A DNA stretch of 57,730 nucleotides from Oscillospiraceae bacterium. GTDB taxonomy: Bacteria; Bacillota; Clostridia; Oscillospirales; UBA929. The stretch spans positions 1-57,730 of the forward strand of contig JAIRWH010000074.1 of NCBI GenBank assembly GCA_031253545.1. Direction: 5' to 3'. The notes below the pieces were generated by a model. The model worked only from the letters and a program-made list of their open reading frames with translations. It was not told where the DNA came from and did not search any database. Each line of letters starts with the position of its first letter. The stretch's first letter is position 1. The position numbers were made by a program, and so were the translations under genes. Below, piece after piece: positions 1-46,066 of the stretch.

Positions 1-75
1 GTTCAGCGCCGCAACCTTGTGGCAGATACGAAGCCGGAGCTCCACCCCGCGACATCCCGGGGTCCCCGCGAACGT

Positions 76-294
76 TCACGTTCGCGAGGTGGAGCTCATC
101 CGCAACCCGCCAAGCGGAACGGGGAACTTCTCCGGCAGGGTTACGCCGAGGCTGAGCGTGAGCGAGCGCTGAGCGTCCGCGTCAATACACAGTACGCTCT
201 TGCCCTGCCTTGCAAGCCCCGCGCCGAGGCTCGCGGCGGTCATGGTCTTACCCACGCCGCCTTTCATGTTGGAGATTGCCAATACTTTGCCCAT
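76..294 (-). pseudogene. ParA/Soj-family partition ATPase, truncated by a premature TGA after 72 codons
   Basis: The translation MGKVLAISNMKGGVGKTMTAASLGAGLARQGKSVLCIDADAQRSL carries the deviant Walker A KGGVGKT typical of ParA/MinD ATPases. A GGAGGG RBS lies just upstream. Family members are about 250 aa, but this frame hits TGA at 76-78. The same frame then stays open to the window edge (GVEL...AAL). Confidence 0.6.
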
Positions 295-3871: not shown

Positions 3872-4533
3872 TCCTCCAGCTTGTAGCCGTGGCCGCGCAC
3901 CGTCTTTATCAGCTCGCCGCACGCGCCGAGCTTTGTGCGCATATTTTTCACGTGGGTGTCAATCGTGCGCGCGTCGCCGAAGAAGTCGTAGTTCCACACG
4001 GAGTTGAGGATTTGCTCGCGCGAGAGGGCGATGCCTTTGTTTTTCATGAAGTACAGCAGAAACTCAAACTCCTTGGGTGTCAACTCGGCGGGTTCGCCGT
4101 TGCATTTGACGGTGTAGGCGCGTGTGTCGAGGGTGATACCCCCCGCCGTATACACCGCCGCCTCCGCCTCGCCGCCGCGTTTGAGCAGCGCGCGGATACG
4201 CGCCTGCAACACGGCAAGGGAGAAGGGTTTTGTGAGGTAATCGTCCGTGCCGGACGTAAAAGCGTCTAATTCGTCTTCCTCTTCGCTCTTTGCCGTGAGC
4301 ATGAGCACGGGTATCTTGGAAAAGCCGCGTATCTCCCGCAGGGCGGTGATACCGTCCATTACGGGCATCATTACGTCCATGACCACCAAAGACAGGCCGC
4401 CCGTGCGCGTTACCGCGTCCAAGGCGCTTTTGCCGTTGTCGGCTTCCAGCACCTCGTAGCCTTCCCGGCGCAGGCAATCGCCCACCAAGCGCCGCAGCTT
4501 CGCCTCGTCGTCCACAATGAGGATTTTTACCAT
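3868..4533 (-). CDS. OmpR-family response regulator
   Basis: The receiver domain is MVKILIVDDE...VVMDVMMPVMDG...LTAK. The winged-helix C-terminus is TIDTHVKNMRTKLG...IKTVRGHGYKLEE. I trimmed the start to the ATG at 4533, which has a GGAGGG RBS. Confidence 0.9.
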   Translation of the reverse strand: MVKILIVDDEAKLRRLVGDCLRREGYEVLEADNGKSALDAVTRTGGLSLVVMDVMMPVMDGITALREIRGFSKIPVLMLTAKSEEEDELDAFTSGTDDYLTKPFSLAVLQARIRALLKRGGEAEAAVYTAGGITLDTRAYTVKCNGEPAELTPKEFEFLLYFMKNKGIALSREQILNSVWNYDFFGDARTIDTHVKNMRTKLGACGELIKTVRGHGYKLEE

Positions 4534-4631
4534 GCTCGCCCTCCGCCCCTCCGTATGGGAATGCCGCAATATCTCCGCCCCGGCGCGTTTCGTTCAACGC
4601 CTCCCGTTACCCGGCGGGCGGCGCTTTGCCG

Positions 4632-5852
4632 TCACACCTGCTCGTCGAACGTCAGCGTCAGCACATACTCCCTGCCTTCGCGCCACACGGTCACTCTCAC
4701 CGTGTCGCCCGCTTGGTGCCTGTCCCTTGAGGCGAGCAAGCTGTTTAAGTCGGTGATTTTGTCGCCGTCAAGCTCTGTGATGATGTCGCCGGCAACAATA
4801 CCCGCTTTTTGGGCGCAACTGCCTCCGGTTACTTCGCGCACCATCACGCCCGGCACCAAGCCCTCGTCGTTTGCCCTGCTCTCGCTCACGGTCTCCGCCG
4901 TGATACCCAAGTAGGGGCGGCCGCGCACAAACCCGTGTTCCGTCAGGTCGGCCACGACTTTGGCCGCCGTGTCGGCGGGAATGGCAAAGCCCAAACCCTC
5001 GGCGTAGGTGGAGGTGCTCTTGGCGTTGATAACGCCCACAACCTTGCCGTATCCGTCAATGAGCGGGCCGCCGGAATTGCCGGGGCTCACGGCCGCGTCT
5101 GTCTGCATCAGCACCATTTTTACGTCTTCCACGGTCACGGTGCGGTCTAACCCGCTGATATAACCCACGGTGAGCGTGTTGGCAAGTTCGCCGAGCGGGT
5201 TGCCTATGGCCACCACGGGGTCGCCCACGCGCGCTTCGGCGGAGGAGCCGAACGAGAGGTAATCATACCCTGTGCCGTCTACTTTGAGCAGGGCGATGTC
5301 GGCTTCGGCATCCGAACCGACAAGCCTTGCCGTGAGCTTTGTGCCGTCGTGCATAATGACCTCAATCTTGCTCGCGCCGCTGATAACGTGGTGGTTGGTC
5401 ACGATAAAGCCGTCTTCGGATATGAAAAACCCGGAGCCGGAGCCTTGCAACACGGTGGAGCTGCCGCCCCTGAATCCACCGCCCGCCGCGTAATTGTCAA
5501 TGGCCACCACGGCGCTGTTGCAAAGCTCATAAATCTGCGCCGGTGTCAGCGAGTCCGCAACGTCGTCGGACGCGTCGGTGGACACGGGCTGGAAGGGCGC
5601 GGGGTCGGGGGATACGCTCGGCTGCGACTGCTGCGAAGATTGAGAAGGGGGGTCGCCCTTGTCGGCGAGAAAATACCCGGTCAGCCCGCCGGCCGTGCCC
5701 GCGAGGACAAAACCCGCCAGTATGATGGCCGCCACCGCGAAGGTACGTTTCTTGCGGCGGACGGGCGCGGGCGGAAGCGACGCGGCCTCGGCGGGTCTCG
5801 TGACGGTGAAGTTGTAACGCTGTTCGTTGCCGTTATAATTGTTGTAATCCAT
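4632..5852 (-). CDS. htrA: HtrA/DegP-family serine protease with N-terminal TM anchor and C-terminal PDZ domain
   Basis: The catalytic triad context is TNHHVI, DIALLKV and GNSGGPL. The PDZ segment is GVMVREVTGGSCAQKAGIVAGDIITELDG. I trimmed the start to MDYNNYNG at 5852, which has a GAAAGGAG RBS. Confidence 0.9.
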   Translation of the reverse strand: MDYNNYNGNEQRYNFTVTRPAEAASLPPAPVRRKKRTFAVAAIILAGFVLAGTAGGLTGYFLADKGDPPSQSSQQSQPSVSPDPAPFQPVSTDASDDVADSLTPAQIYELCNSAVVAIDNYAAGGGFRGGSSTVLQGSGSGFFISEDGFIVTNHHVISGASKIEVIMHDGTKLTARLVGSDAEADIALLKVDGTGYDYLSFGSSAEARVGDPVVAIGNPLGELANTLTVGYISGLDRTVTVEDVKMVLMQTDAAVSPGNSGGPLIDGYGKVVGVINAKSTSTYAEGLGFAIPADTAAKVVADLTEHGFVRGRPYLGITAETVSESRANDEGLVPGVMVREVTGGSCAQKAGIVAGDIITELDGDKITDLNSLLASRDRHQAGDTVRVTVWREGREYVLTLTFDEQV

Positions 5853-6049: not shown

Positions 6050-8128
6050 TCAACGGATGCCGCCGCCCGGCGTTTTGTTTTCGAGCTTAAATTGCGATAT
6101 AAGCCCGTCGAGCATGACGGACTGGCTGCTCATTTCCTCGGATGCGGCCGCGCTCTGCTCGGCTGTGGCGCTGTTTTGTTGCACCACTTGCGCCACTTGG
6201 TCTATGCCTTTGTTTATCTGCGCTATGCCGGCCGACTGCAAGCCTGAGGAACGGGCGATGTCGCCGATTATGGCGTTGCTTTCGTTTACGCCGTGCACTA
6301 TCTTGGCAAGGCTCACGGCCGTTTCTCCCGCGATATGCGTGCCGAGCTCCGCTTTCGTCATTGAGCTTGTAATAAGCTCGCCTGTGTCTTTGGCGGCCGC
6401 CGCGCTCTTTGAGGCAAGGCTGCGCACCTCCTCCGCCACCACGGCGAAGCCCTTGCCGTGTTGCCCGGCGCGCGCGGCCTCCACGGCGGCGTTGAGCGCG
6501 AGTATATTCGTCTGAAACGCGATGTCGTCTATGACCTTGATGACTTTTTGTATATCGCGGCTGGCTTGGTTTATGTCGTTCACGGCGGCGAGCATTTCGT
6601 CCATCTGCCGGCTGCCTTCCTCGGCGCTGCTGCGGATGGAGTTGATGAGCGCGGCGGCGCGCGAGGCCATATCCGCGTTTTCCTTTATTTTTTGCGCGAT
6701 TTCGGATACCGATGCCGAGAGTTCCTGCACGGATGCTGCCTGTTGTGTGCTACCCTGCGCCAGGGATTGCGCGCCGTCGGCAATCTGCTTGGAGCCGGCG
6801 GAAACGAGCGAAGCGGAACGGTTTACGCCGCCGAGCAGGTCGTTGAAGCTGCCGAGCATACTCAACAGGGACTTTGCCATAACGTCGAAGTCGGAAAGCG
6901 TCTCGATTTGTGTGGTCAGGTCGCCCGTGGCAATAGTGCCCAATTCTTCCGCCATATGCGTCACGTGCCTTATAAAGGCAAAGCAATCCCTGATTGTCTG
7001 CCCGATTTCGTCGGTGCCGGCGGCGTACTTTGTCGTGAGGTCGGCATCTTCGGGTTTGAAGTCCAAACCCCCCGTGGAGGCCGCCCGCCTCATGTAGGAG
7101 GAAAGCGCGGAAAGCGGCCTGCTCATTGACCTGCCGATGACAAAAGCTATGACGAGCACAATGGAGAGCGCCACGACGAATATGACGGCAAACCTTATGA
7201 TGGAGGCGTATATCTCGGCGTTGACCTCGTTCTTAGGCGCTAAGACAAACACGGCGTAGCCGTTGAAGAGCGCTGCGGACGCTCCGAGGTAATCGCGCCC
7301 GGCGAGCTTAGTCGGAAACACGCCGCCGCTCTGCTCCGACGCGAGCGAGAGCGCGCTTTTCTCCGCCGCGGAGAGGGTGCCTATCACATCGCCGGTTTCC
7401 ACAAACGCGCCGCCGTTGTCTCGCATCAGCGCGAAGCCCGTATCGTATACCACAACGTTTTTCACCAATTCCCCGACATGGTTCACGGAGATGTCCGCGC
7501 CCACCACGCCGACTATTGCGTGGCCGATGACAACCGGTTCGGAGTAGCTCACCGCGAGGGAACCGTCTACCCATGTGTACACGGGCGACCAGTACGGCGC
7601 GCCGGACGTGTACGCGCCGTAAAACCAGAGCATATCGTCGGAGGATGTGTTTTTGTAGTCGTCGTAAGACTGCGGTTCGGCGGGCGCGACACCGCCGCCG
7701 TCGGTTTTCTCGTAAAACACCTCGCTCACAAGCGGGTGGCCCGCAAGGTCGGGATGCAGGGCGAAATACGCGCCGGAAATGAAGTCGGAGCCGGAGATGA
7801 TATTGCGGATAAACCCGCCCATCACGGGCTCTATGTCCGCGCCGAAGTAGCCTTCGGCATCTTCGCGGTATTTCGCCGGGTCGAAGTAGGCCTCCGCGAA
7901 GTGCCTCATGCCCGCCACGGCGTACGAGGCATCCGTAAACGCCAGAGCGCTCTCGTCCGATATTTCGAGCGCGCGGTATTCAAGGCTCAGGTTGGAATGC
8001 CGCCCCGTCTCCGTGATAATGCGAAACTCCATGTACGCGGCGATTGCTCCTGCCACCACGACCACAAACGCGCCGATGATGAACGCAAACTTCCAAGACA
8101 GCTTCTTGAAGGCAAACAACTTCCCCAT
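6050..8128 (-). CDS. Methyl-accepting chemotaxis protein (Cache-like periplasmic domain, HAMP, MCP signalling domain)
   Basis: The conserved signalling hairpin is [41 protein letters not shown]. Two TM segments flank a domain of about 270 aa. The ATG at 8128 lies 10 nt after a GGGAGG RBS, whereas the ORF-track TTG at 8134 is too close to it. Confidence 0.9.
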
Positions 8129-8150
8129 GCGCAACCAACCTCCCGGGTTT

Positions 8151-8166
8151 ACAGCTCATGAGCTGT
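8151..8166. promoter_or_regulatory. Perfect 16-bp palindrome in the MCP 5' region
   Basis: ACAGCTCATGAGCTGT is fully self-complementary with no spacer. It lies about 10 nt upstream of the MCP RBS. Confidence 0.5.
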
Positions 8167-8276
8167 GTGTTATTGCTTTGGATATTAACGGTATAACGGT
8201 TTATCGGCCTCTTCCCCCGAGGCGGGAAGACACGTCTTTTCGCTCTCGCCGTAACCGTTTATCGCGAGGGCGATAA

Positions 8277-10094
8277 CTATTCGTCTAACTTCAACACGGC
8301 CATGAAAGCCTCTTGCGGCACCTCCACCGCGCCGAGGTTGCGCATGCGTTTTTTGCCTTCCTTCTGTTTTTCAAGCAACTTTTTCTTGCGCGTGATGTCG
8401 CCGCCGTAGCACTTGGCGAGCACGTCTTTGCGCAATGCCCGTACTGTCTCGCGGGCGATGACCTTGCCGCCCACCGCCACCTGCACGGGAATCTCGAAAA
8501 GGCGGCGCGGCAGATGCTCTTTGAGTTTTTCCGCGATGCGGCGCGCGCGGGCATAGGCCTTGTCCGCGTGGACGATAAACGAGAGCGCGTCCACCGGGTC
8601 GCCGAGCAGCAACACGTCTAACTTCACAAGGTCGGATTCGCGGTATTCCAAAAAATCGTAGTCTAACGAGGCATACCCGCGTGTGCGTGATTTGAGCGCG
8701 TCGAAGAAGTCGTAGATAATCTCGCCGAGCGGCAATTCGTAATGCAGCTCCACCCGCCCGTCCGCCTTGCCGTCTATGTAGCTCATGTTCTTGAATACGC
8801 CGCGCCTTTCGTTGCACAGCTCCATGAGGCTGCCCACATATTCCTGCGGCGTGATGATGCCGGCTTTTACATACGGCTCGGAAGACTTGACGATGCGCGA
8901 AGGGTCGGGGTAGTTGAGCGGGTTGTCTATCACGGTCTCGCTGCTGTCGGTGAGGGTAAACTTATATATCACGCTTGGAGCTGTGGTAATGAGGTCTAAG
9001 TTATGCTCGCGTTCCAAGCGTTCCTGCACCACTTCCATGTGCAGTAACCCTAAGTAGCCGCACCTGAAACCGTAACCGAGCGCCACGGAGCTTTCCGGCT
9101 CGAAGCTGAGGGCGGCGTCGTTGAGATACAGCTTCTCCAGCGCCTCGCGCAGGTCGGGGTACTTCGCCCCGTCGGCGGGGTAAATACCGGAAAACACCAT
9201 TGGGCGGCAGGGGCGGAAGCCGGACAACGCCTGCGCGGCGGGGCAATCCGCAAGCGTGACCGTGTCTCCGGCAATGGTGTCGCGCACGGATTTGATGGAG
9301 GCGGTGAAATAGCCGACTTCGCCCGCCGAGAGCGCGTCGCGCGGCTCGTAGCCCATAGGCCGCAGGTAGCCCACCTCCACCACGGTGTGCCGCGCGCCCG
9401 TGGCAAACATCGTGACGGTGTCGCCGGTCGCGAGGGTGCCGTCTTTGACGCGGACGAATACGATAACGCCTTTGTACGGGTCGTAGAGGCTGTCGAAAAT
9501 GAGCGCGCGCAACGGGTCGGCGGGGTCGCCCCGCGGGGCGGGCACACCGCCGACAATCAGTTCGAGTACATCGTCCGTGTTGGTGCCGAGCTTTGCGGAT
9601 ATGCGCGGCGCGGAGTCGGCGGGCAGGCCGATAATGTCTTCAATTTCCTTGGCCGCCCTTTCGGGGTCGGCGGCGGCAAGGTCAATTTTATTGATTACGG
9701 GCAACACCTCAAGCCCGTGCTCCAACGCTAAATAAGCGTTCGCCAAGGTCTGAGCCTCGATGCCCTGCGCCGCGTCCACCACGAGCAACGCGCCTTCGCA
9801 AGCCGACAGGCTGCGCGAGACTTCGTAGTTGAAGTCCACATGGCCGGGGGTATCTATGAGGTTGAGCGCGTATTCGTCTCCGGCGCGGCTTGTGTATTCA
9901 AGGCGCACGGCGCGCGCTTTTATGGTAATGCCGCGTTCGCGTTCCAGGTCCATGTTGTCTAAAAGCTGCTCTGTCATGTCGCGCTTTTCCACAGCGCGCG
10001 TCGCCTCGATGAGGCGGTCGGCAAGGGTGGATTTACCGTGGTCAATATGGGCGATTATGCAAAAATTACGGGTGAGGCTCAAAGATATTACCAC
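8277..10094 (-). CDS. lepA: Translation elongation factor 4 (LepA)
   Basis: The sequence runs [22 protein letters not shown]...[11 protein letters not shown]...NKID, with the LepA-specific C-terminal domain ending [22 protein letters not shown]. Confidence 0.95.
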
Positions 10095-40952: not shown

Positions 40953-41762
40953 GTGGGTTCCATGCTTCCGGAGATACTATACCCGTTTATCAGCATCGGC
41001 GCGCTCGCGCTCTGCTTCGGCGCGCTGCTGGGCTTTTCGGCCAAGAAGTTCGCCGTGGTGCCAAACGAAAAGGCCGAGCGTATCAAGGGCATTTTGCCCG
41101 GCGCCAACTGCGCCGCCTGCGGCTACGCCGGCTGCGCCGCGTTTGCCCTTGCCGTGGCCGAAGAGCCCGGCATATACACCTACACGACCTGCCCCGTGGG
41201 CGGCCCGGACACAGCCGCCGCCATAGCGCGGGTGCTGGGGGTGGAGGCCGCCGCCGCGAACCGCTGCGCCGCCTTCATCAAGTGCAACGGCAAAGACGAA
41301 AACGTGAAGCGCAACTACATCTACGACGGCCCGAAGAGCTGCATCGCCGCCTCCCAGCTTGCCACGGGCGGCAACAAGTCCTGCGCGTACAGCTGCATAG
41401 GCCTCGCGAGCTGCAAAAACGCCTGTCCCTTCGATGCCATACGCATTGTAGACAGCATCGCCGTGGTAAACCCCAAAAAGTGCATGGCCTGCGGCAAATG
41501 CGTGGCCGTGTGCCCCAAAAAGCTCATCGAGATTGTGCCGAACAAAAACCGCGTGCGGGTGCTCTGCAATTCCGGCGACACCAGCAAATTAGTCCGCGCG
41601 AACTGCCGCGCCGGCTGCATCGGTTGCACACTCTGCCAAAAGGCGTGCGAGGCGGGGGCCATCACCGTGAAGGACAACATCGCGCATATAGACTACGAAA
41701 AATGCACCCTCTGCAATAAATGCGCGCAGAAGTGCCCCGCGAAGGCCATCATCGGCGCGTGA
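40953..41762 (+). CDS. rnfB: Rnf complex subunit B (polyferredoxin)
   Basis: The protein has an N-terminal TM and the cluster motif LPGANCAACGYAGC. Several CxxCxxCxxxCP ferredoxin motifs follow (CMACGKCVAVCP, CIGCTLCQKACE, CTLCNKCAQKCP). Confidence 0.9.
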   Translation: MGSMLPEILYPFISIGALALCFGALLGFSAKKFAVVPNEKAERIKGILPGANCAACGYAGCAAFALAVAEEPGIYTYTTCPVGGPDTAAAIARVLGVEAAAANRCAAFIKCNGKDENVKRNYIYDGPKSCIAASQLATGGNKSCAYSCIGLASCKNACPFDAIRIVDSIAVVNPKKCMACGKCVAVCPKKLIEIVPNKNRVRVLCNSGDTSKLVRANCRAGCIGCTLCQKACEAGAITVKDNIAHIDYEKCTLCNKCAQKCPAKAIIGA

Positions 41763-42136
41763 TGCTCAGTTACGCCGAAACGGGCGACCTGCTCGACGCC
41801 ATGGCCGAGGAGCTGCCGGAGGAGTTTTTCAACGACTTAAACGGCGGTATCGTGCTGCTGCCGCAAAGCAAGCTCCACCCCGAATCCGGCGGCGGCGATG
41901 TCTACATCCTCGGCGAATACCACCGCGACGCCGTCTTGGGCAGGCGTATCGTCATCTATTACGGCTCGTTCGAGGCCGTCTATCCGCTCGCCGGGCGCGA
42001 GGCGGTCACGCGTGAGCTACGCAAAACGCTGCGCCATGAGTTTACGCACCACATAGAATCGCTCGCGGGCGAGCGCGGCTTGGAGCGCAAAGACGAAGAG
42101 GATATGCTGCGTTATTACTTCGGGCATTACCGATAG
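41762..42136 (+). CDS. Small zincin-like metallopeptidase-family protein (HExxH)
   Basis: I trimmed the start to MLSYAETGDLLD; its ATG overlaps the rnfB stop as GTGATG. The motif LRHEFTHHIE lies in a 124-aa protein, as in the Zincin_1/DUF1025-type family. Confidence 0.55.
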   Translation: MLSYAETGDLLDAMAEELPEEFFNDLNGGIVLLPQSKLHPESGGGDVYILGEYHRDAVLGRRIVIYYGSFEAVYPLAGREAVTRELRKTLRHEFTHHIESLAGERGLERKDEEDMLRYYFGHYR

Positions 42137-42164
42137 AAAGCGCCGCCGCGCGGTGTGGAGTGGT

Positions 42165-42226
42165 GGTTAGTTGTTAGTTGTCAGTTGTTAGGGGTTAGGA
42201 GACGGGGGTTGCGGGGGTTTTGCGGG
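42165..42226 (+). repeat. Heptanucleotide array, copy A, with a G-run tail
   Basis: The array reads GGTTAGT TGTTAGT TGTCAGT TGTTAGG GGTTAGG AGACGGG GGTTGCG GGGGTTT TGCGGG. It ends exactly at the stop codon (42227-42229) of the minus-strand lipoprotein gene. The G-runs are GGGG(42191-94), GGGGG(42204-08), GGGGG(42213-17) and GGG(42224-26). Confidence 0.85.
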
Positions 42227-43296
42227 TTATGGCGTTATCCACATGGCGGGGCGAACGCCGGCGCTGCCGCCGCCGTAGCCGCCGCCGCCGTAGAAGAAGC
42301 CGTCGCCGCTGACGTTGCCGTCGTCGTAGACGATGGCGGCGTAGTAGCTGTCGAAGCCGGGGGACCGCAGCCACCAGTAGGAAGTATTCCCATTTGCATT
42401 GTATGCTATTCGGGCTGTAACATTGGACAGATAGAGATTCACCTCGTCTATGCTGAGCAGAAACACTTTGTCGGTCGTGTCGTTGCCACCGGGTGTGCCG
42501 TAATCTGGGTTGTCACCATTCACGACCCTTGTGTCCGCTATCCTTGACCTATCGCCCGCGTCGAAGCCGTTGTAGAAGTCGCCGTTGAGGTATTGCCTGG
42601 TCGTGCTGTTCTCCCAAGTAATCTCTCCCCCCGGTTCGTGGTAAGGCCTGTTTTCAAGAACGCCCATGCTCAGCAGGAGGACGCTGTTGCCCGCCCTGTC
42701 GAGGACTGCCCAGTTGTAGCCTCCGAACTGCATTTGTTCGTAGCCCATTTCGGACAATGCGACTGCGGTTATCGCTTCGTTGCCCTTGAACCCAAAGCCT
42801 TTGAATGTGACCGCGAGGTTTGGTGTGCCGCTAAATGCGTAGCTACCGATTGAGGTCACGCCGTCGGGCAAAGTCACACTCGTGAGTCCTTTGCAATCGA
42901 TGAACACTTCATGGCCGATTGAGGTCACGCCGTCTGGGATATACACATACGCAATCCCTGCGCCCGCGAACGCCCCATTTCCAATCGCCTTTACGGTTTC
43001 GCCCTCTATCTTCTCGGGTATCCGCACCTTGATTGTCGTTCCGATGTACTCGTTAATCACGATCCCGCCGAGCGCGGCGTCGTATCCGTACTTGAAGTCG
43101 CTCGCTTGCGTTTCAGGCAGGTCGTCCGGGGAAGGGCTTCTGCTGCGCGAAGGCGAGGGGGAAGCGTCGGAGCAAGCGGAAAACAGCAAAGCGAACACAA
43201 GCGCGAAGGCGAGGAAAGCGGCGCGGGGCTTTCTCAGCAGGCTATTTTCGCGGGCGCGGTGTGTGTGTGTGTGTGTGTGTGGCGGGTGGCTTTCAT
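42227..43296 (-). CDS. Surface lipoprotein with BspA-type leucine-rich repeats and a DUF6273-like domain. Its 5' end is out of frame at a (GT)11 tract (phase-OFF as sequenced)
   Basis: The lipobox is LLFSAC, followed by the linker SPSPSRSRSPSPDD. The LRR units are VKAIGNGAFAGAG.../VTSIGHEVFIDCKGLTSVTLPDGVTSIGSYAF. The DUF6273-like hallmarks are YNWAVLDR...VFLLSIDEV...YWWLRSPG...GVRPAMWI. The only RBS-preceded start (43296) is separated from the ORF by a frameshift inside the dinucleotide repeat. Confidence 0.75.
43259..43280. repeat. Perfect (GT)11 / (AC)11 dinucleotide microsatellite
   Basis: This is a run of 22 nt, gtgtgtgtgtgtgtgtgtgtgt. It lies between the ATG (43296) and the signal-peptide hydrophobic core of the lipoprotein gene. 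Confidence 0.95.
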
Positions 43297-43344
43297 TTTA
43301 CAAGCACCTCTTTTATTTATTATTGCGGGTATTCCTAAAAGGTG

Positions 43345-43373
43345 AGTATAACCCGGAACGGCGAAAGTCGCAA
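43345..43373 (-). promoter_or_regulatory. Sigma-A type promoter of the lipoprotein gene
   Basis: On the minus strand, TTGCGA (43368-43373), a 17-nt spacer and TATACT (43345-43350). The -35 element abuts the first heptad of array B. Confidence 0.55.
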
Positions 43374-43491
43374 GGTTAGTTGTCAGTGGTTAGTGGTTAG
43401 TGGTTAGGAGACGGGGTGCGCGCCTGCGGCGCGTTAGTGGTTAGTGGTTAGGGGACGGGGGTTAGGGGACTTAGTGGTTAGGGGACGGGGG
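43374..43491 (+). repeat. Heptanucleotide array, copy B (two blocks split by a short GC hairpin)
   Basis: Block 1 (43374-43416) reads GGTTAGT TGTCAGT GGTTAGT GGTTAGT GGTTAGG AGACGGG G. A hairpin, CGCGCC-TGC-GGCGCG, lies at 43419-43433. Block 2 (43434-43491) reads TTAGTGG TTAGTGG TTAGGGG ACGGGGG TTAGGGG AC TTAGTGG TTAGGGG ACGGGGG. Five G4-G5 runs lie between 43451 and 43491. Confidence 0.9.
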
Positions 43492-43527
43492 TGAGTAAGG
43501 TTGCCGTGACCCGTGCCGCTTGCGCGG

Positions 43528-43556
43528 TTGACACGCCCGCCCTTTTGCATTACAAT
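43528..43556 (+). promoter_or_regulatory. Sigma-A type promoter of the GH94 phosphorylase gene
   Basis: TTGACA (43528-43533), a 17-nt spacer and TACAAT (43551-43556). The promoter lies about 60 nt upstream of the ATG at 43616. Confidence 0.65.
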
Positions 43557-43615
43557 GGTTACGGCGCGCGGGCTTTGGCCTGCGCACCCATATCACGCCG
43601 ATGCGGAGGTCGGAC

Positions 43616-46066
43616 ATGGTGGAGGATAATTACGGCTTTTTCGACGACGGGGCGGAGGAATACTGCGTTACGCGCCCGGACACGCCCTACCCTTGGATTA
43701 ACTACCTCGGTTCGCAAGACTTTTTCGGCCTGTTTTCCAACACGGCGGGGGGTTACTGCTTCTATCGCGACGCGCGGCTTTTGCGCCTTACCCGCTACCG
43801 CTACAACAACGTGCCCGCCGACGTGGGCGGGCGTTACTTCTATATTAACGACGGCGGCGACGTATGGAACCCCGGCTGGCAGCCCTGCAAAACGCCGCTT
43901 GACAGCTACGAGTGCCGCCACGGCCTCGGCTACTCCGTCATTCGCGGCTCACGGGGCGGCATTGCGGCGGAGCACACGGCTTTTGTGCCGGTGGACGCGG
44001 CGGCGGAGGTACACCGCCTGCGCCTGACCAACACCACCTCCGCCGAAAAGAGCTTTACCCTCTTTTCTTTCGTGGAGTTCTGCCTGTGGAACGCCATGGA
44101 CGATTCCACCAACTTCCAGCGCAATTATTCCATCGGCGAAGTGGAGGTGCACGGCGGCGTTATATACCACAAAACGGAGTACCGCGAGCGCCGCAACCAT
44201 TACGCCGTGTTTGCCGCCAACCGCCCCGCCGACGGTTTTGACACCGACCGCGAGAGCTTCATGGGTTTATACGGCGGTTTCCACGAACCCGCAGCCGTGT
44301 TGGAGGGCGTTTCGCGCGGCAGCGTCGCCTCCGGCTGGGCACCCATCGGTTCCCACAGCTTCCGCCTCACGCTCGCCCCCGGGCAGACCGAGAGCCTTAT
44401 ATTCGTGCTCGGCTACTGCGAAAACCCCGACGGCGAAAAGTTTGAGTCTCTCGGCGTTATCAACAAAGCCCCCGCCTCCGCCCTGCTCTCGCGCTTTCGC
44501 GCCGACGGGCAGGTTGACGCGGCGCTGCTTGCCCTGAAAGAATACTGGGGGCGCCTGCTCTCGCGTTACAGGCTGACCTCGTGCCTCGGCGACGAACGTC
44601 TGGAGAAGGCCTCGCGCATGGTAAACGTCTGGAACCAGTACCAGTGCATGGTCACGTTTAATATGTCGCGCTCGGCATCGTATTTCGAGTCCGGCATTGG
44701 CAGGGGCATGGGCTTCCGCGACTCTTCGCAGGACCTGCTCGGATTTGTGCATTTGGTGCCGGAACGCGCGCGCGAGCGTATTCTCGACATCGCCGCCACG
44801 CAGTTTCCAGACGGCTCCGCCTACCACCAATATCAACCGCTCACGAAGAAGGGCAATTCCGAGGTGGGTTCCGGGTTCAACGACGACCCGCTCTGGCTCA
44901 TTATCGGCACGGCGGCCTACGTCAAAGAGACGGGCGATTGGGCTGTGCTGCGCGAACAGGTGCCGTTTGACTGTCAAAAAGGCTCGGAAGCGCCGCTCTT
45001 GGAGCACTTGCGCCGCTCGTTCAATTACACCGCCACGCACAAAGGCCCCCACGGCTTGCCGCTCATAGGCCGCGCCGACTGGAACGACTGCCTTAACCTC
45101 AACTGCTTTTCCTCTGTGCCGGGCGAGAGTTTTCAGACTACGGAAAACTTCGAGTCCGGCGTGGCGGAGTCTGTGCTCATAGCGGGCATTTTCCTCTACT
45201 GCGCCCCGGACTACATAGAGATGTGCCGCCGCGAGGGCGACACGGAGAGCGCGGAAAAGGGCGAGGCCGCCGCCGCCGCCATGCGCGAGGCTGTGGACAA
45301 ACACGGCTGGGACGGCAAATGGTTCCTCCGCGCCTACGATGCTCACGGGGAGAAAATCGGCAGCCACAGCTGCGAAGAGGGGCAAATCTTCATTGAGCCG
45401 CAGGGCTTCATGGGCATGGCGGGCGTGGGCATGGACGACGGGCGCGCCATAGCGGCCTTAGACAGCGTGGCAGAGCGCTTGGATACCCCGTTTGGCATTG
45501 TTTTGCAGCAGCCGGCTTATTCCTCCTACCGCCTCAACTTGGGGGAAATATCCAGCTACCCGCCCGGCTACAAGGAAAACGCCGGTATCTTCTGCCACAA
45601 TAACCCGTGGATTTCCATCGCCGAATGTATCGCCGGGCGCGGACAGCGGGCGTTTGAGGTCTACCGCAAGACCTGCCCCGCGTTTCTTGAAGGCGTGGCA
45701 AAACTCCACCGCACGGAGCCTTACGTCTATTCGCAAATGGTGGCCGGGCGGGACGCGGCGCGGCACGGCGAAGCGAAAAACTCCTGGCTCACGGGCACGG
45801 CGGCGTGGACTTTTGTGAATATTTCGCAGTATATCTTGGGCATAAGGGCGGGCTTCGACGGGCTGATAATTGACCCGTGCCTGCCGCCCGACGTGAAGGG
45901 CTTCACGGTGGAGCGCTATTTCAGGGGCACGCGCTATGTTATAACCGTGGACAACGGCGCGGGCAAAGAAAAAGGCGTGGTGTCCATTACGCTCAACGGC
46001 GAAAAGGTGAGCGGGCAGCTGCTTGCCTCCGGCACCGCGGCCGAGGTGCGCGTTGTGATGGGCTGA
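43616..46066 (+). CDS. GH94-family cellobiose/cellodextrin (or chitobiose) phosphorylase
   Basis: The N-terminus [65 protein letters not shown] matches the cellobiose phosphorylase N-terminus. The length of about 816 aa fits. The ATG at 43616 lies 7 nt after GGAGGT, and the track start at 43601 is also possible. Confidence 0.85.

Follow-up and report, generated by a model that had tools for sequence, protein, structure and literature searches.

Heptanucleotide repeats in bacteria and the array in an Oscillospiraceae contig

Tandem arrays of seven-nucleotide units have been noted in bacteria since 1990 and are still without an accepted function. In that year, Mazel et al. reportedly described the cyanobacterial STRR heptamers CCCCAGT, TTGGTCA and CAACAGT. 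Here we analyze an array of 118 bp (array 3 below) at positions 43374-43491 (+ strand) of a 57,730-nucleotide stretch of DNA from an Oscillospiraceae bacterium (contig JAIRWH010000074.1; the whole stretch is hereafter called the window). It comprises about 14 heptads (GGTTAGT, TGTCAGT, TTAGGGG and ACGGGGG), occupies the gap between two predicted divergent sigma-70-like promoters, and is an instance of a published class, the bacterial intergenic heptanucleotide simple sequence repeats (SSRs; STRR-like repeats or long SSRs). The original prediction for this locus, that no described family matches the repeat, was wrong in this respect, since intergenic heptanucleotide repeats have been published (PMC4679880, PMC4692102). 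A text search of the literature for the unit strings returned no bacterial repeat family under these sequences, and the unit is therefore unreported in the searched literature although its kind is known. Head-to-tail 7-nt units in at least three copies, several dispersed arrays (three in 57.7 kb) and a non-coding location, all features of the class, are found here.

The family to which array 3 belongs is present in multiple copies in this fragment, recurs across phyla and in phages, is intergenic, has a 5' G/T end anchored at genes, and changes by whole units. We consider it probable that array 3 is one locus of a slippage-prone, strand-asymmetric family of heptad SSRs that is tolerated only between genes, and that it is a passive spacer at this site.

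Array 3 resembles the cyanobacterial STRR in being one of a set of dispersed tandem heptamers, and in the NNNYAGT shape that is common to CCCCAGT and CAACAGT; furthermore, cyanobacterial genomes also hold GGTTAGT arrays mixed with sibling units. However, STRR in the strict sense are defined for heterocystous cyanobacteria, and both the units and the phylum of the window differ. Strict STRR1-3 membership was rejected on account of the units GGTTAGT, TGTCAGT, TTAGGGG and ACGGGGG and of the neighboring GH94 product, which is closest to those of Oscillospiraceae metagenome-assembled genomes (MAGs). In the long SSRs of Mrazek, Guo and Shah (2007), as their account is relayed in PMC4679880 and PMC4692102, heptanucleotides are the most abundant kind and are proposed to arise by polymerase slippage. 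The window family likewise agrees with that account in its tandem 7-nt units, its many arrays per genome, its preference for intergenic DNA and its sporadic phylogenetic distribution. The GGTTAGT unit and an uncultured Oscillospiraceae-like Firmicute host are not among the examples in the account as relayed, which also does not include gene-facing polarity or a G-rich terminus.

Two further groups of heptamers are close to the present family. The TAACTGA repeats of Beggiatoaceae, Cyanobacteria and Bacteroidetes precede start codons by a short distance and differ between sister strains by 7-nt insertions or deletions (PMC4679880). Their reverse complement, TCAGTTA, is one base off the TCAGTTG of the window, and an intergenic position, a patchy cross-phylum spread, 7-nt insertions or deletions, and a TAAC-containing strand that is sense just upstream of start codons are points of likeness (PMC4679880). 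In contrast, most arrays of the Beggiatoaceae genome have 2-6 units and overlap the ribosome-binding site (PMC4679880), whereas the window arrays lie 78-106 nt upstream of an ATG, or after a stop codon. The heptamers GGGAATC of Xanthomonas and GGGGAYT of Nostoc form G-quadruplexes (G4s) in vitro, are mostly transcribed, and have no assigned function; they lie antisense upstream of open reading frames (ORFs) or sense after stop codons, and are rare between divergent ORFs (PMC4692102). The present family shares with GGGAATC and GGGGA(C/T)T this location rule, the scarcity between divergent genes and the variable length, and GGGGAC(T) units occur in the second block of array 3. It differs in that G-runs are found in only five of the approximately 14 units of array 3, with neither a four-unit preference nor a canonical G4. 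Membership in the G4-forming heptamers, with a tract of at least three Gs in every unit and short loops, was rejected, as the first block of array 3 and the whole of another window array (array 1) have no G-runs.

In Haemophilus influenzae, the hmw1A repeat (ATCTTTC)n acts within the 5' untranslated region (5'UTR) via an RNase III-cleaved hairpin with a G-rich arm (PMC12721329). In hmw1A and hmw2A, a heptamer SSR lies upstream of a surface-adhesin gene and its repeat number alters expression (PMC12721329, PMC8262952), and by analogy these loci would be the closest working model for the original idea that array 3 tunes an adjacent promoter. Unlike that transcribed SSR, array 3 lies upstream of both predicted -35 hexamers, outside the predicted promoter spacer and leader, is without a pairing partner, and is part of a genome-wide family. 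Repetitive extragenic palindromic sequences (REP), bacterial interspersed mosaic elements (BIME) and miniature inverted-repeat transposable elements (MITE) are also dispersed intergenic elements at gene ends, and a small GC hairpin between heptads, as in array 3 and in loci L005 and L038 described below, is reminiscent of them. However, the window unit is a direct tandem heptad rather than a palindrome, without terminal inverted repeats or target duplications. The REP/BIME/MITE reading was rejected: the hairpin of array 3 has one exact copy in the window, its matches with up to three mismatches look like GC-rich chance occurrences, and it has no Rfam match.

Anatomy of array 3

Array 3 is made up of two blocks with a short hairpin between them. 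Block 1, or module 1 (43374-43416, + strand), consists of GGTTAGT TGTCAGT GGTTAGT GGTTAGT followed by the terminus GGTTAGGAGACGGGG; read in heptad register, the same positions are GGTTAGT TGTCAGT GGTTAGT GGTTAGT GGTTAGG AGACGGG G. The GC hairpin GCGCGCC-TGC-GGCGCG (43418-43433, + strand), between modules 1 and 2, has a 6-bp stem (43419-24 / 43428-33) and a 3-nt loop, and the heptad phase is moved by 2 nt across it. Block 2, comprising modules 2 and 3 (43434-43491, + strand), contains two GGTTAGGGGACGGGG termini, five runs of four to five Gs and a relaxed G4 motif, and reads in register TTAGTGG TTAGTGG TTAGGGG ACGGGGG / TTAGGGG AC TTAGTGG TTAGGGG ACGGGGG. The sub-blocks, with about 14 units in total, are separated by 2-nt phase breaks. 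Tandem Repeats Finder recognized 43374-43407 with period 7 (GGTTAGT, 4.9 copies) and 43433-43492 with periods 7 and 14, and a period-7 self-match scan of the window agreed with it on the period-7 arrays.

The 15-mer GGTTAGGRGACGGGG has four exact copies in the window, all on the + strand; one of them ends a second array (array 2), and the other three, located by exact motif match, are in array 3 at 43402-43416, 43446-60 and 43476-90. Array 3 therefore consists of three modules in tandem, in each of which heptads are closed by a G-rich terminus; each is 2 nt out of phase, and the hairpin comes after the first. For the sequence GGTTAGTGGTTAG, allowing up to two mismatches, 14 matches were found in the window compared with 0.5 expected, and none of 100 shuffled sequences reached 14. 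The 6-bp hairpin is the sole secondary structure on either strand of array 3 (folding z-scores of -1.2 and -1.6 relative to shuffled controls), and Rfam matched no family in the window at the gathering threshold, and none at an E-value of 1 or lower in 42000-43700. The heptads, the hairpin, the G-runs (including all five runs of four to five Gs within 43451-43491) and the place beside a predicted -35 hexamer, between divergent promoter-like sites, are thus as the original prediction had described them.

Three arrays in the window

Three arrays of the GGTTAGT family exist in the 57.7 kb, with no other intergenic period-7 array in the window, and all three are situated between ORFs, in non-coding DNA. 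Array 2 (42165-42222, + strand) is of the same orientation as array 3 and reads GGTTAGT TGTTAGT TGTCAGT TGTTAGG GGTTAGGAGACGGGGG TTGCGGGGG TTTTG; it begins 29 nt past the TAG stop codon (42134-36) of the ORF 41720-42136, and finishes just ahead of the stop of the lipoprotein ORF (42227). Array 1 (546-588, - strand) is of opposite orientation and lacks a G-rich terminus. A secreted-protein ORF (694-1416) has its ATG, at 694, 106 nt downstream of the array, a divergent ParA-like gene is on the other side, and no promoter-like sites were found nearby. That gene, at 1-291 (- strand), runs past the left edge of the window and encodes a ParA/Soj-type ATPase with a KGGVGKT motif; array 1, like array 3, therefore sits between divergent genes. 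All three arrays follow the orientation rule, by which the G-rich strand is the antisense strand ahead of an ORF or the sense strand behind a stop codon. With respect to the distance of approximately 50 bp reported in PMC4692102, array 2 is within it (29 nt), while arrays 3 (78 nt) and 1 (106 nt) are outside. Arrays 1 and 3 are both farther from the ATG than is typical, and both are between divergent genes. An association of the array specifically with the lipoprotein promoter is contradicted by the two further arrays of the same family in other contexts and by homologous LRR_5 and DUF6273 genes that have neither heptads nor a GT tract.

Distribution across genomes and phages

An exact 20-mer of about three GGTTAGT units, (GGTTAGT)~3, was found at no fewer than 120 loci in a collection of species-representative genomes, in approximately 13 phyla as taken from the record titles, whereas by simple arithmetic a random 20-mer would be expected about once in a collection of that size. 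Cyanobacteriota, Chloroflexota, Planctomycetota, Victivallales, Acidobacteriota, Bacteroidota, several Bacillota, Pseudomonadota, Desulfobacterota, Bdellovibrionota, Fibrobacterota, Gemmatimonadota and Cloacimonadota are among the matches listed. The same 20-mer is also present in 54 viral contigs. Composition-matched permuted heptads gave 21, 13, 13 and 3 viral loci, and are thus 2.5-18 times rarer than GGTTAGT in these contigs; heptad arrays in general are therefore common, and GGTTAGT is commoner still. The fetched loci mix GGTTAGT with the sibling units TGTTAGT, GATTAGT, GGTCAGT, GGTTGGT and GGATAGT. The notion that any G/T-rich heptad behaves alike was rejected, as the composition-matched permutations were rarer and showed no anchoring at genes.

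The G-rich terminus has a different distribution. It is nearly absent from the cross-phylum GGTTAGT loci, that is, from the at least 120 genome loci and the 54 viral loci. A metagenome scan for TTAGKGGTTAGGRGACGGGG returned 48 loci, all of which carry the terminus by the design of the search; they range in GC content from 45% to 63% and come mostly from the guts of higher termites (for example, Ga0099364 is the Th196 P3 termite-gut sample; PMC7024585). In the termite-gut loci, heptads of the types TTAGGAG, TTAGGAT and TTAGGGG start at a stop codon and close with the terminus GGTTAGGRGACGGGG. The terminus as a general trait of GGTTAGT arrays was rejected, because it is almost missing from genome and viral loci and concentrated in termite-gut metagenomes.

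Placement and polarity

For analysis of placement, arrays were oriented with the G/T-rich strand on top and neighboring genes were called by a longest-ORF rule. All 122 arrays examined fall outside ORFs of 100 or more amino acids. Of 92 arrays, 68 have a gene boundary no more than 30 nt from their left end and 15 have one that close to their right end; the left end is nearer to a gene than the right in 75 of the 92 (p = 2.7e-10). In 33 of the 68 left-anchored cases, the array itself supplies the stop codon of the upstream gene. Arrays adjacent to a stop codon have the G/T strand as sense in 56 cases and as antisense in 10, whereas in those 0-30 nt upstream of a start codon the C/A strand has the sense of the leader in 27 and the G/T strand in seven. 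For 27 arrays, a C/A-rich period-7 partner array follows on the right at a distance of no more than 200 nt; no array has such a partner on its left. Control heptads, in contrast, showed no anchoring (19/32, p = 0.38), and some of them were inside ORFs. The mean C content of the arrays is only 3% on the G/T strand, and arrays nearly free of C on one strand are unstructured for that reason. The context between divergent genes is the rarest, with 13 of 92 arrays, and with six of the 72 pairs in which both neighbors are within 300 nt. In the viral contigs L171, L206, L176, L177 and L200, the array starts directly after a terminator-like hairpin and T-run; as read from the sequence, such phage arrays would lie just outside the predicted transcript.

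Variation in unit number

Whole 7-nt units are gained or lost between near-identical genomes, at orthologous sites elsewhere in the family, in keeping with the unit-number changes envisaged in the original prediction. Between L174 and L203, which are 98.8% identical, the orthologous array differs by one unit, and L183 and L204 have five units where L196 has four. L141 and L159 are two TTAGGAG units and an 8-nt duplication of the terminus apart. In the related phage contigs L171, L191, L206 and L221, arrays begin at the same stop codon, with differences in unit number and sequence at two sites. Six metagenome contigs that are 99-100% identical have identical arrays. The opposing case named in the original prediction, a generic intergenic repeat of fixed length, holds in its first part, for this is a generic repeat at gene ends, but not in its second, since the family varies in unit number.

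A probable passive spacer and alternative explanations

The family may be defined by the unit GGTTAGT and its siblings, TTAG plus NNN, which in array 3 form modules capped by the G-rich GGTTAGGRGACGGGG. Growth and shrinkage of the arrays would proceed by replication slippage or unequal recombination. As 7 cannot be divided by three, successive units fall in different frames, and with a TAG on one of its strands and a TAA on the other in every unit, a run of three units puts stop codons in all six frames; the arrays would for this reason be tolerated only between genes. At array 3, the three tandem modules would serve mainly as a passive, unstructured spacer of variable length between divergent promoters, and they would influence expression, if at all, incidentally and not as a dedicated switch.

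Several points weigh against this passive-spacer reading. The length variation was observed for the family elsewhere, not at array 3 itself. Pure slippage leaves unexplained the recurrence of the same unit across phyla, the strict polarity with respect to genes, and the conserved terminus. Array 3 sits between divergent genes, which is the rarest context in our sample, and the same under-representation is reported in PMC4692102; moreover, it abuts a -35 hexamer, so that a local effect is possible. In addition, the control scans with permuted heptads covered viral contigs only, and the rule used to call gene neighbors is a crude one.

The alternatives differ in whether they place the function of array 3 in the promoter region, in the fold of the DNA, in RNA, or in the process that makes the array. 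As a contingency locus, array 3 would gain or lose 7-bp units and so shift the distance or helical phase of an upstream-bound factor relative to the lipoprotein (or GH94) promoter, adding a second, graded layer of control to that of the coding (GT)n switch. Such a role accords with an array that abuts the predicted -35 hexamer, belongs to a family changing by whole units between near-identical genomes, and neighbors a surface lipoprotein gene with a frame-shifting (GT)11, as well as with array 1, which is placed alike ahead of another secreted-protein gene, and there is precedent in H. influenzae hmw1A (ATCTTTC)n (PMC12721329). We nevertheless regard it as unlikely. Array 2 follows a stop codon, arrays across phyla adjoin many unrelated genes, mostly at their stops, and homologous lipoprotein genes are without heptads; no tie of such repeats to phase-variable gene classes was seen in PMC4692102. 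Furthermore, and unlike the hmw1A repeat, the array occupies neither the promoter spacer nor the 5'UTR but lies upstream of the promoter, where no activator site is known, and no promoter-like site would include it in a transcript. Regulation of these two promoters by the array is unproven, and the case for it is weakened by how generic the repeat is and by the heptad-free homologous lipoprotein loci. It is very unlikely, in our view, that block 2 acts by folding as a DNA G4 (or an RNA G4 if transcribed) that blocks or stimulates the flanking promoters. The original prediction of a strong G4 motif holds only if relaxed loops are allowed: with loops of up to 12 nt, the pattern is present in arrays 2 and 3, the latter having five runs of four to five Gs, and in the G-quadruplex model of ViennaRNA the energy of block 2, which is -5.6 kcal/mol without a G4, falls to -22.1 kcal/mol when a four-layer G4 is included, a stabilization of about 16 kcal/mol. 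The related G-rich heptamers GGGAATC and GGGGAYT, moreover, form G4s in vitro (PMC4692102), although no regulatory role was found in that study. However, the strict pattern (loops of 1-7 nt) is absent from array 3 because one loop is 12 nt long, and the canonical G4 reading was rejected for this reason. Since G-runs are missing from array 1 and from most of the family elsewhere, a G4 cannot be the common function of the family, and nine canonical G4 motifs are found elsewhere in this 60% GC window, where such motifs are therefore not unusual.

An element acting at the RNA level, whether (ACUAACC)n as a leader or standby site free of G and of structure, a C-rich Rho-loading site on the lipoprotein-sense strand, or a platform for an RNA-binding protein, also seems very improbable here. 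Elsewhere, the 27 arrays that lie 0-30 nt upstream of a start with the C/A strand as sense, compared with seven of the opposite orientation, must be part of leaders; TAACTGA repeats are arranged alike (PMC4679880), most heptamer repeats of Xanthomonas are transcribed (PMC4692102), and the RNA of the array is predicted to be unstructured. Array 3, however, is 78 nt from the ATG rather than 0-30 nt and lies upstream of both predicted promoters, with no other promoter-like site in 42000-43800, and several phage arrays, as judged from their sequences, are just downstream of terminator-like hairpins with a T-run, which would put them outside the transcript. A polar DNA process would have modules added directionally, for example by 3'-end-directed synthesis of repeats at an intergenic break that is afterwards rejoined, or as a very small mobile module whose G-rich end is defined; local slippage would then not be their only source. 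If it exists, such a process, shared across phyla and phages, would explain the polarity, the start at stop codons, the conserved terminus and the stacked out-of-phase modules. It draws on the 5' end of the G/T strand facing the flanking gene, with paired arrays of the form (GGTTAGT)n...(ACTAACC)n by 27 to 0, on arrays that begin at or in a stop codon, on the terminus GGTTAGGRGACGGGG kept (by search design) in the 48 mostly termite-gut metagenome loci despite GC contents of 45% to 63%, on the three tandem modules of array 3, each 2 nt out of phase, and on the occurrence of the same unit in approximately 13 phyla and in phages. We give it very little weight, as no enzyme or element goes with the arrays, no pair of empty and filled sites was found (all four related phage contigs carry the array), the hairpin is not a dispersed repeat within the window, and selection on RNA or translation could equally yield the polarity.

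Under the passive-spacer reading and its alternatives alike, array 3 adds a Firmicute example with a modular architecture of heptads and a G-rich cap. The unit shared over approximately 13 phyla and phages, the polarity at gene boundaries and the rapid turnover of units are constraints on models of slippage with selection, of RNA-level function or of directional synthesis. For annotation, promoter-adjacent heptad arrays are not to be taken as locus-specific switches without population data.

Flanking genes and predicted promoters

The promoter-like sites on both sides of array 3 are matches to the consensus only. On the lipoprotein side, TTGCGA-17-TATACT (43345-43373, - strand) matches at 9 of 12 positions and its -35 hexamer abuts array 3; on the other side, TTGACA-17-TACAAT (43528-43556, + strand) matches at 11 of 12 and begins 37 nt beyond the array. 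No further promoter-like sites were found in 42000-43800.

The gene on the left (42227-43296, - strand) encodes a BspA-type lipoprotein with LRR_5 and DUF6273 domains. Its ATG at 43296, 78 nt from array 3, is out of frame with the body of the gene because of a (GT)11 tract at 43259-43281, as originally predicted. The tract lies between this ATG and the lipoprotein signal peptide, and the frame of the ATG ends after 20 codons (MKATRHTHTHTHTAPAKIAC*), so that in the assembled sequence the gene is OFF; frame arithmetic indicates that the ATG would be back in frame with (GT)10 or (GT)13. Four homologous lipoprotein loci in relatives (approximately 42-46% identity) have neither heptads nor a GT tract, and conserved regulation of this lipoprotein family by heptads was rejected on these grounds. 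Exact direct copies of GGTTAGGAGACGGGG at 42193-42207 and 43402-43416, approximately 1.2 kb apart, bracket the lipoprotein gene and its promoter; the segment could be deleted or duplicated through them, or they could be what a cassette insertion left behind.

The gene on the right (43616-46066, + strand) encodes a GH94 phosphorylase (cellobiose-phosphorylase type). Its start is probably the ATG at 43616 rather than the first ATG at 43601, in view of the GGAGG at 43605-09 and the called product of 816 amino acids. This product is not on record elsewhere, the best homologue being 78% identical and from Oscillospiraceae MAGs; the contig of that homologue has no heptads upstream of GH94 and has a different gene order. 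One of the closest GH94 relatives is in the MAG GCA_009777255.1 (WRMG series), whose accession is similar to that of the termite-gut MAG in L044 (WRMI); the two MAGs may belong to one project, and the window would then likely be from a Firmicute of the termite gut. Near the left end of the window, the secreted-protein ORF 694-1416 contains C-rich tandem repeats of 12 and 21 nt (CCCACCACCCCG; CCCTCCACCCCGCCCGTTGAC) at 1234-1293, which probably encode a proline-rich repeat, and G4-type motifs are present on the strand opposite to them.

Elements associated with heptad arrays elsewhere

In the Planctomycetaceae MAG Pcl387_bin71 (L004, L025, L086 and L094), GGTTAGT arrays on several contigs are fused to a conserved element of approximately 45 nt (TTCGCATGCGGA..TTAG.ACC.GTTATAAGTTCGAATCACTAA), which may be a composite mobile or structured element. 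In the Victivallales MAG RGIG7794, heptads alternate with the GC hairpin module GGGAGGGCYGCGCTCCTGCGCGGCC (L005, ~4530-4640; L038, ~4800-4900); the layout of heptads, hairpin and heptads in L005 and L038 is that of array 3, with a different hairpin sequence.

The termite-gut contigs contain a dispersed element of approximately 110 nt, TTAGGAGRCGGGCTATGTGATTCCGGAAAGCGGAGC...GGAACACATAGCTCGGCGACGGCT, with the closing inverted repeat GCTATGTG / CACATAGC, which is always flanked by heptads and whose left end resembles the terminus motif. It is located at ~7280-7400 in L133 and at ~6060-6190 and 11700-11797 in L142, and is also recognized in L139, L146, L163, L165, L170 and L126; it has no Rfam match at the gathering threshold and is absent from the window. 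L142, which also carries heptad arrays, contains an OLE RNA (RF01071, 399 bits) at 7548-8384. OLE RNA is, to our knowledge, restricted to Firmicutes, and its presence suggests that this termite-gut contig is from a Firmicute.

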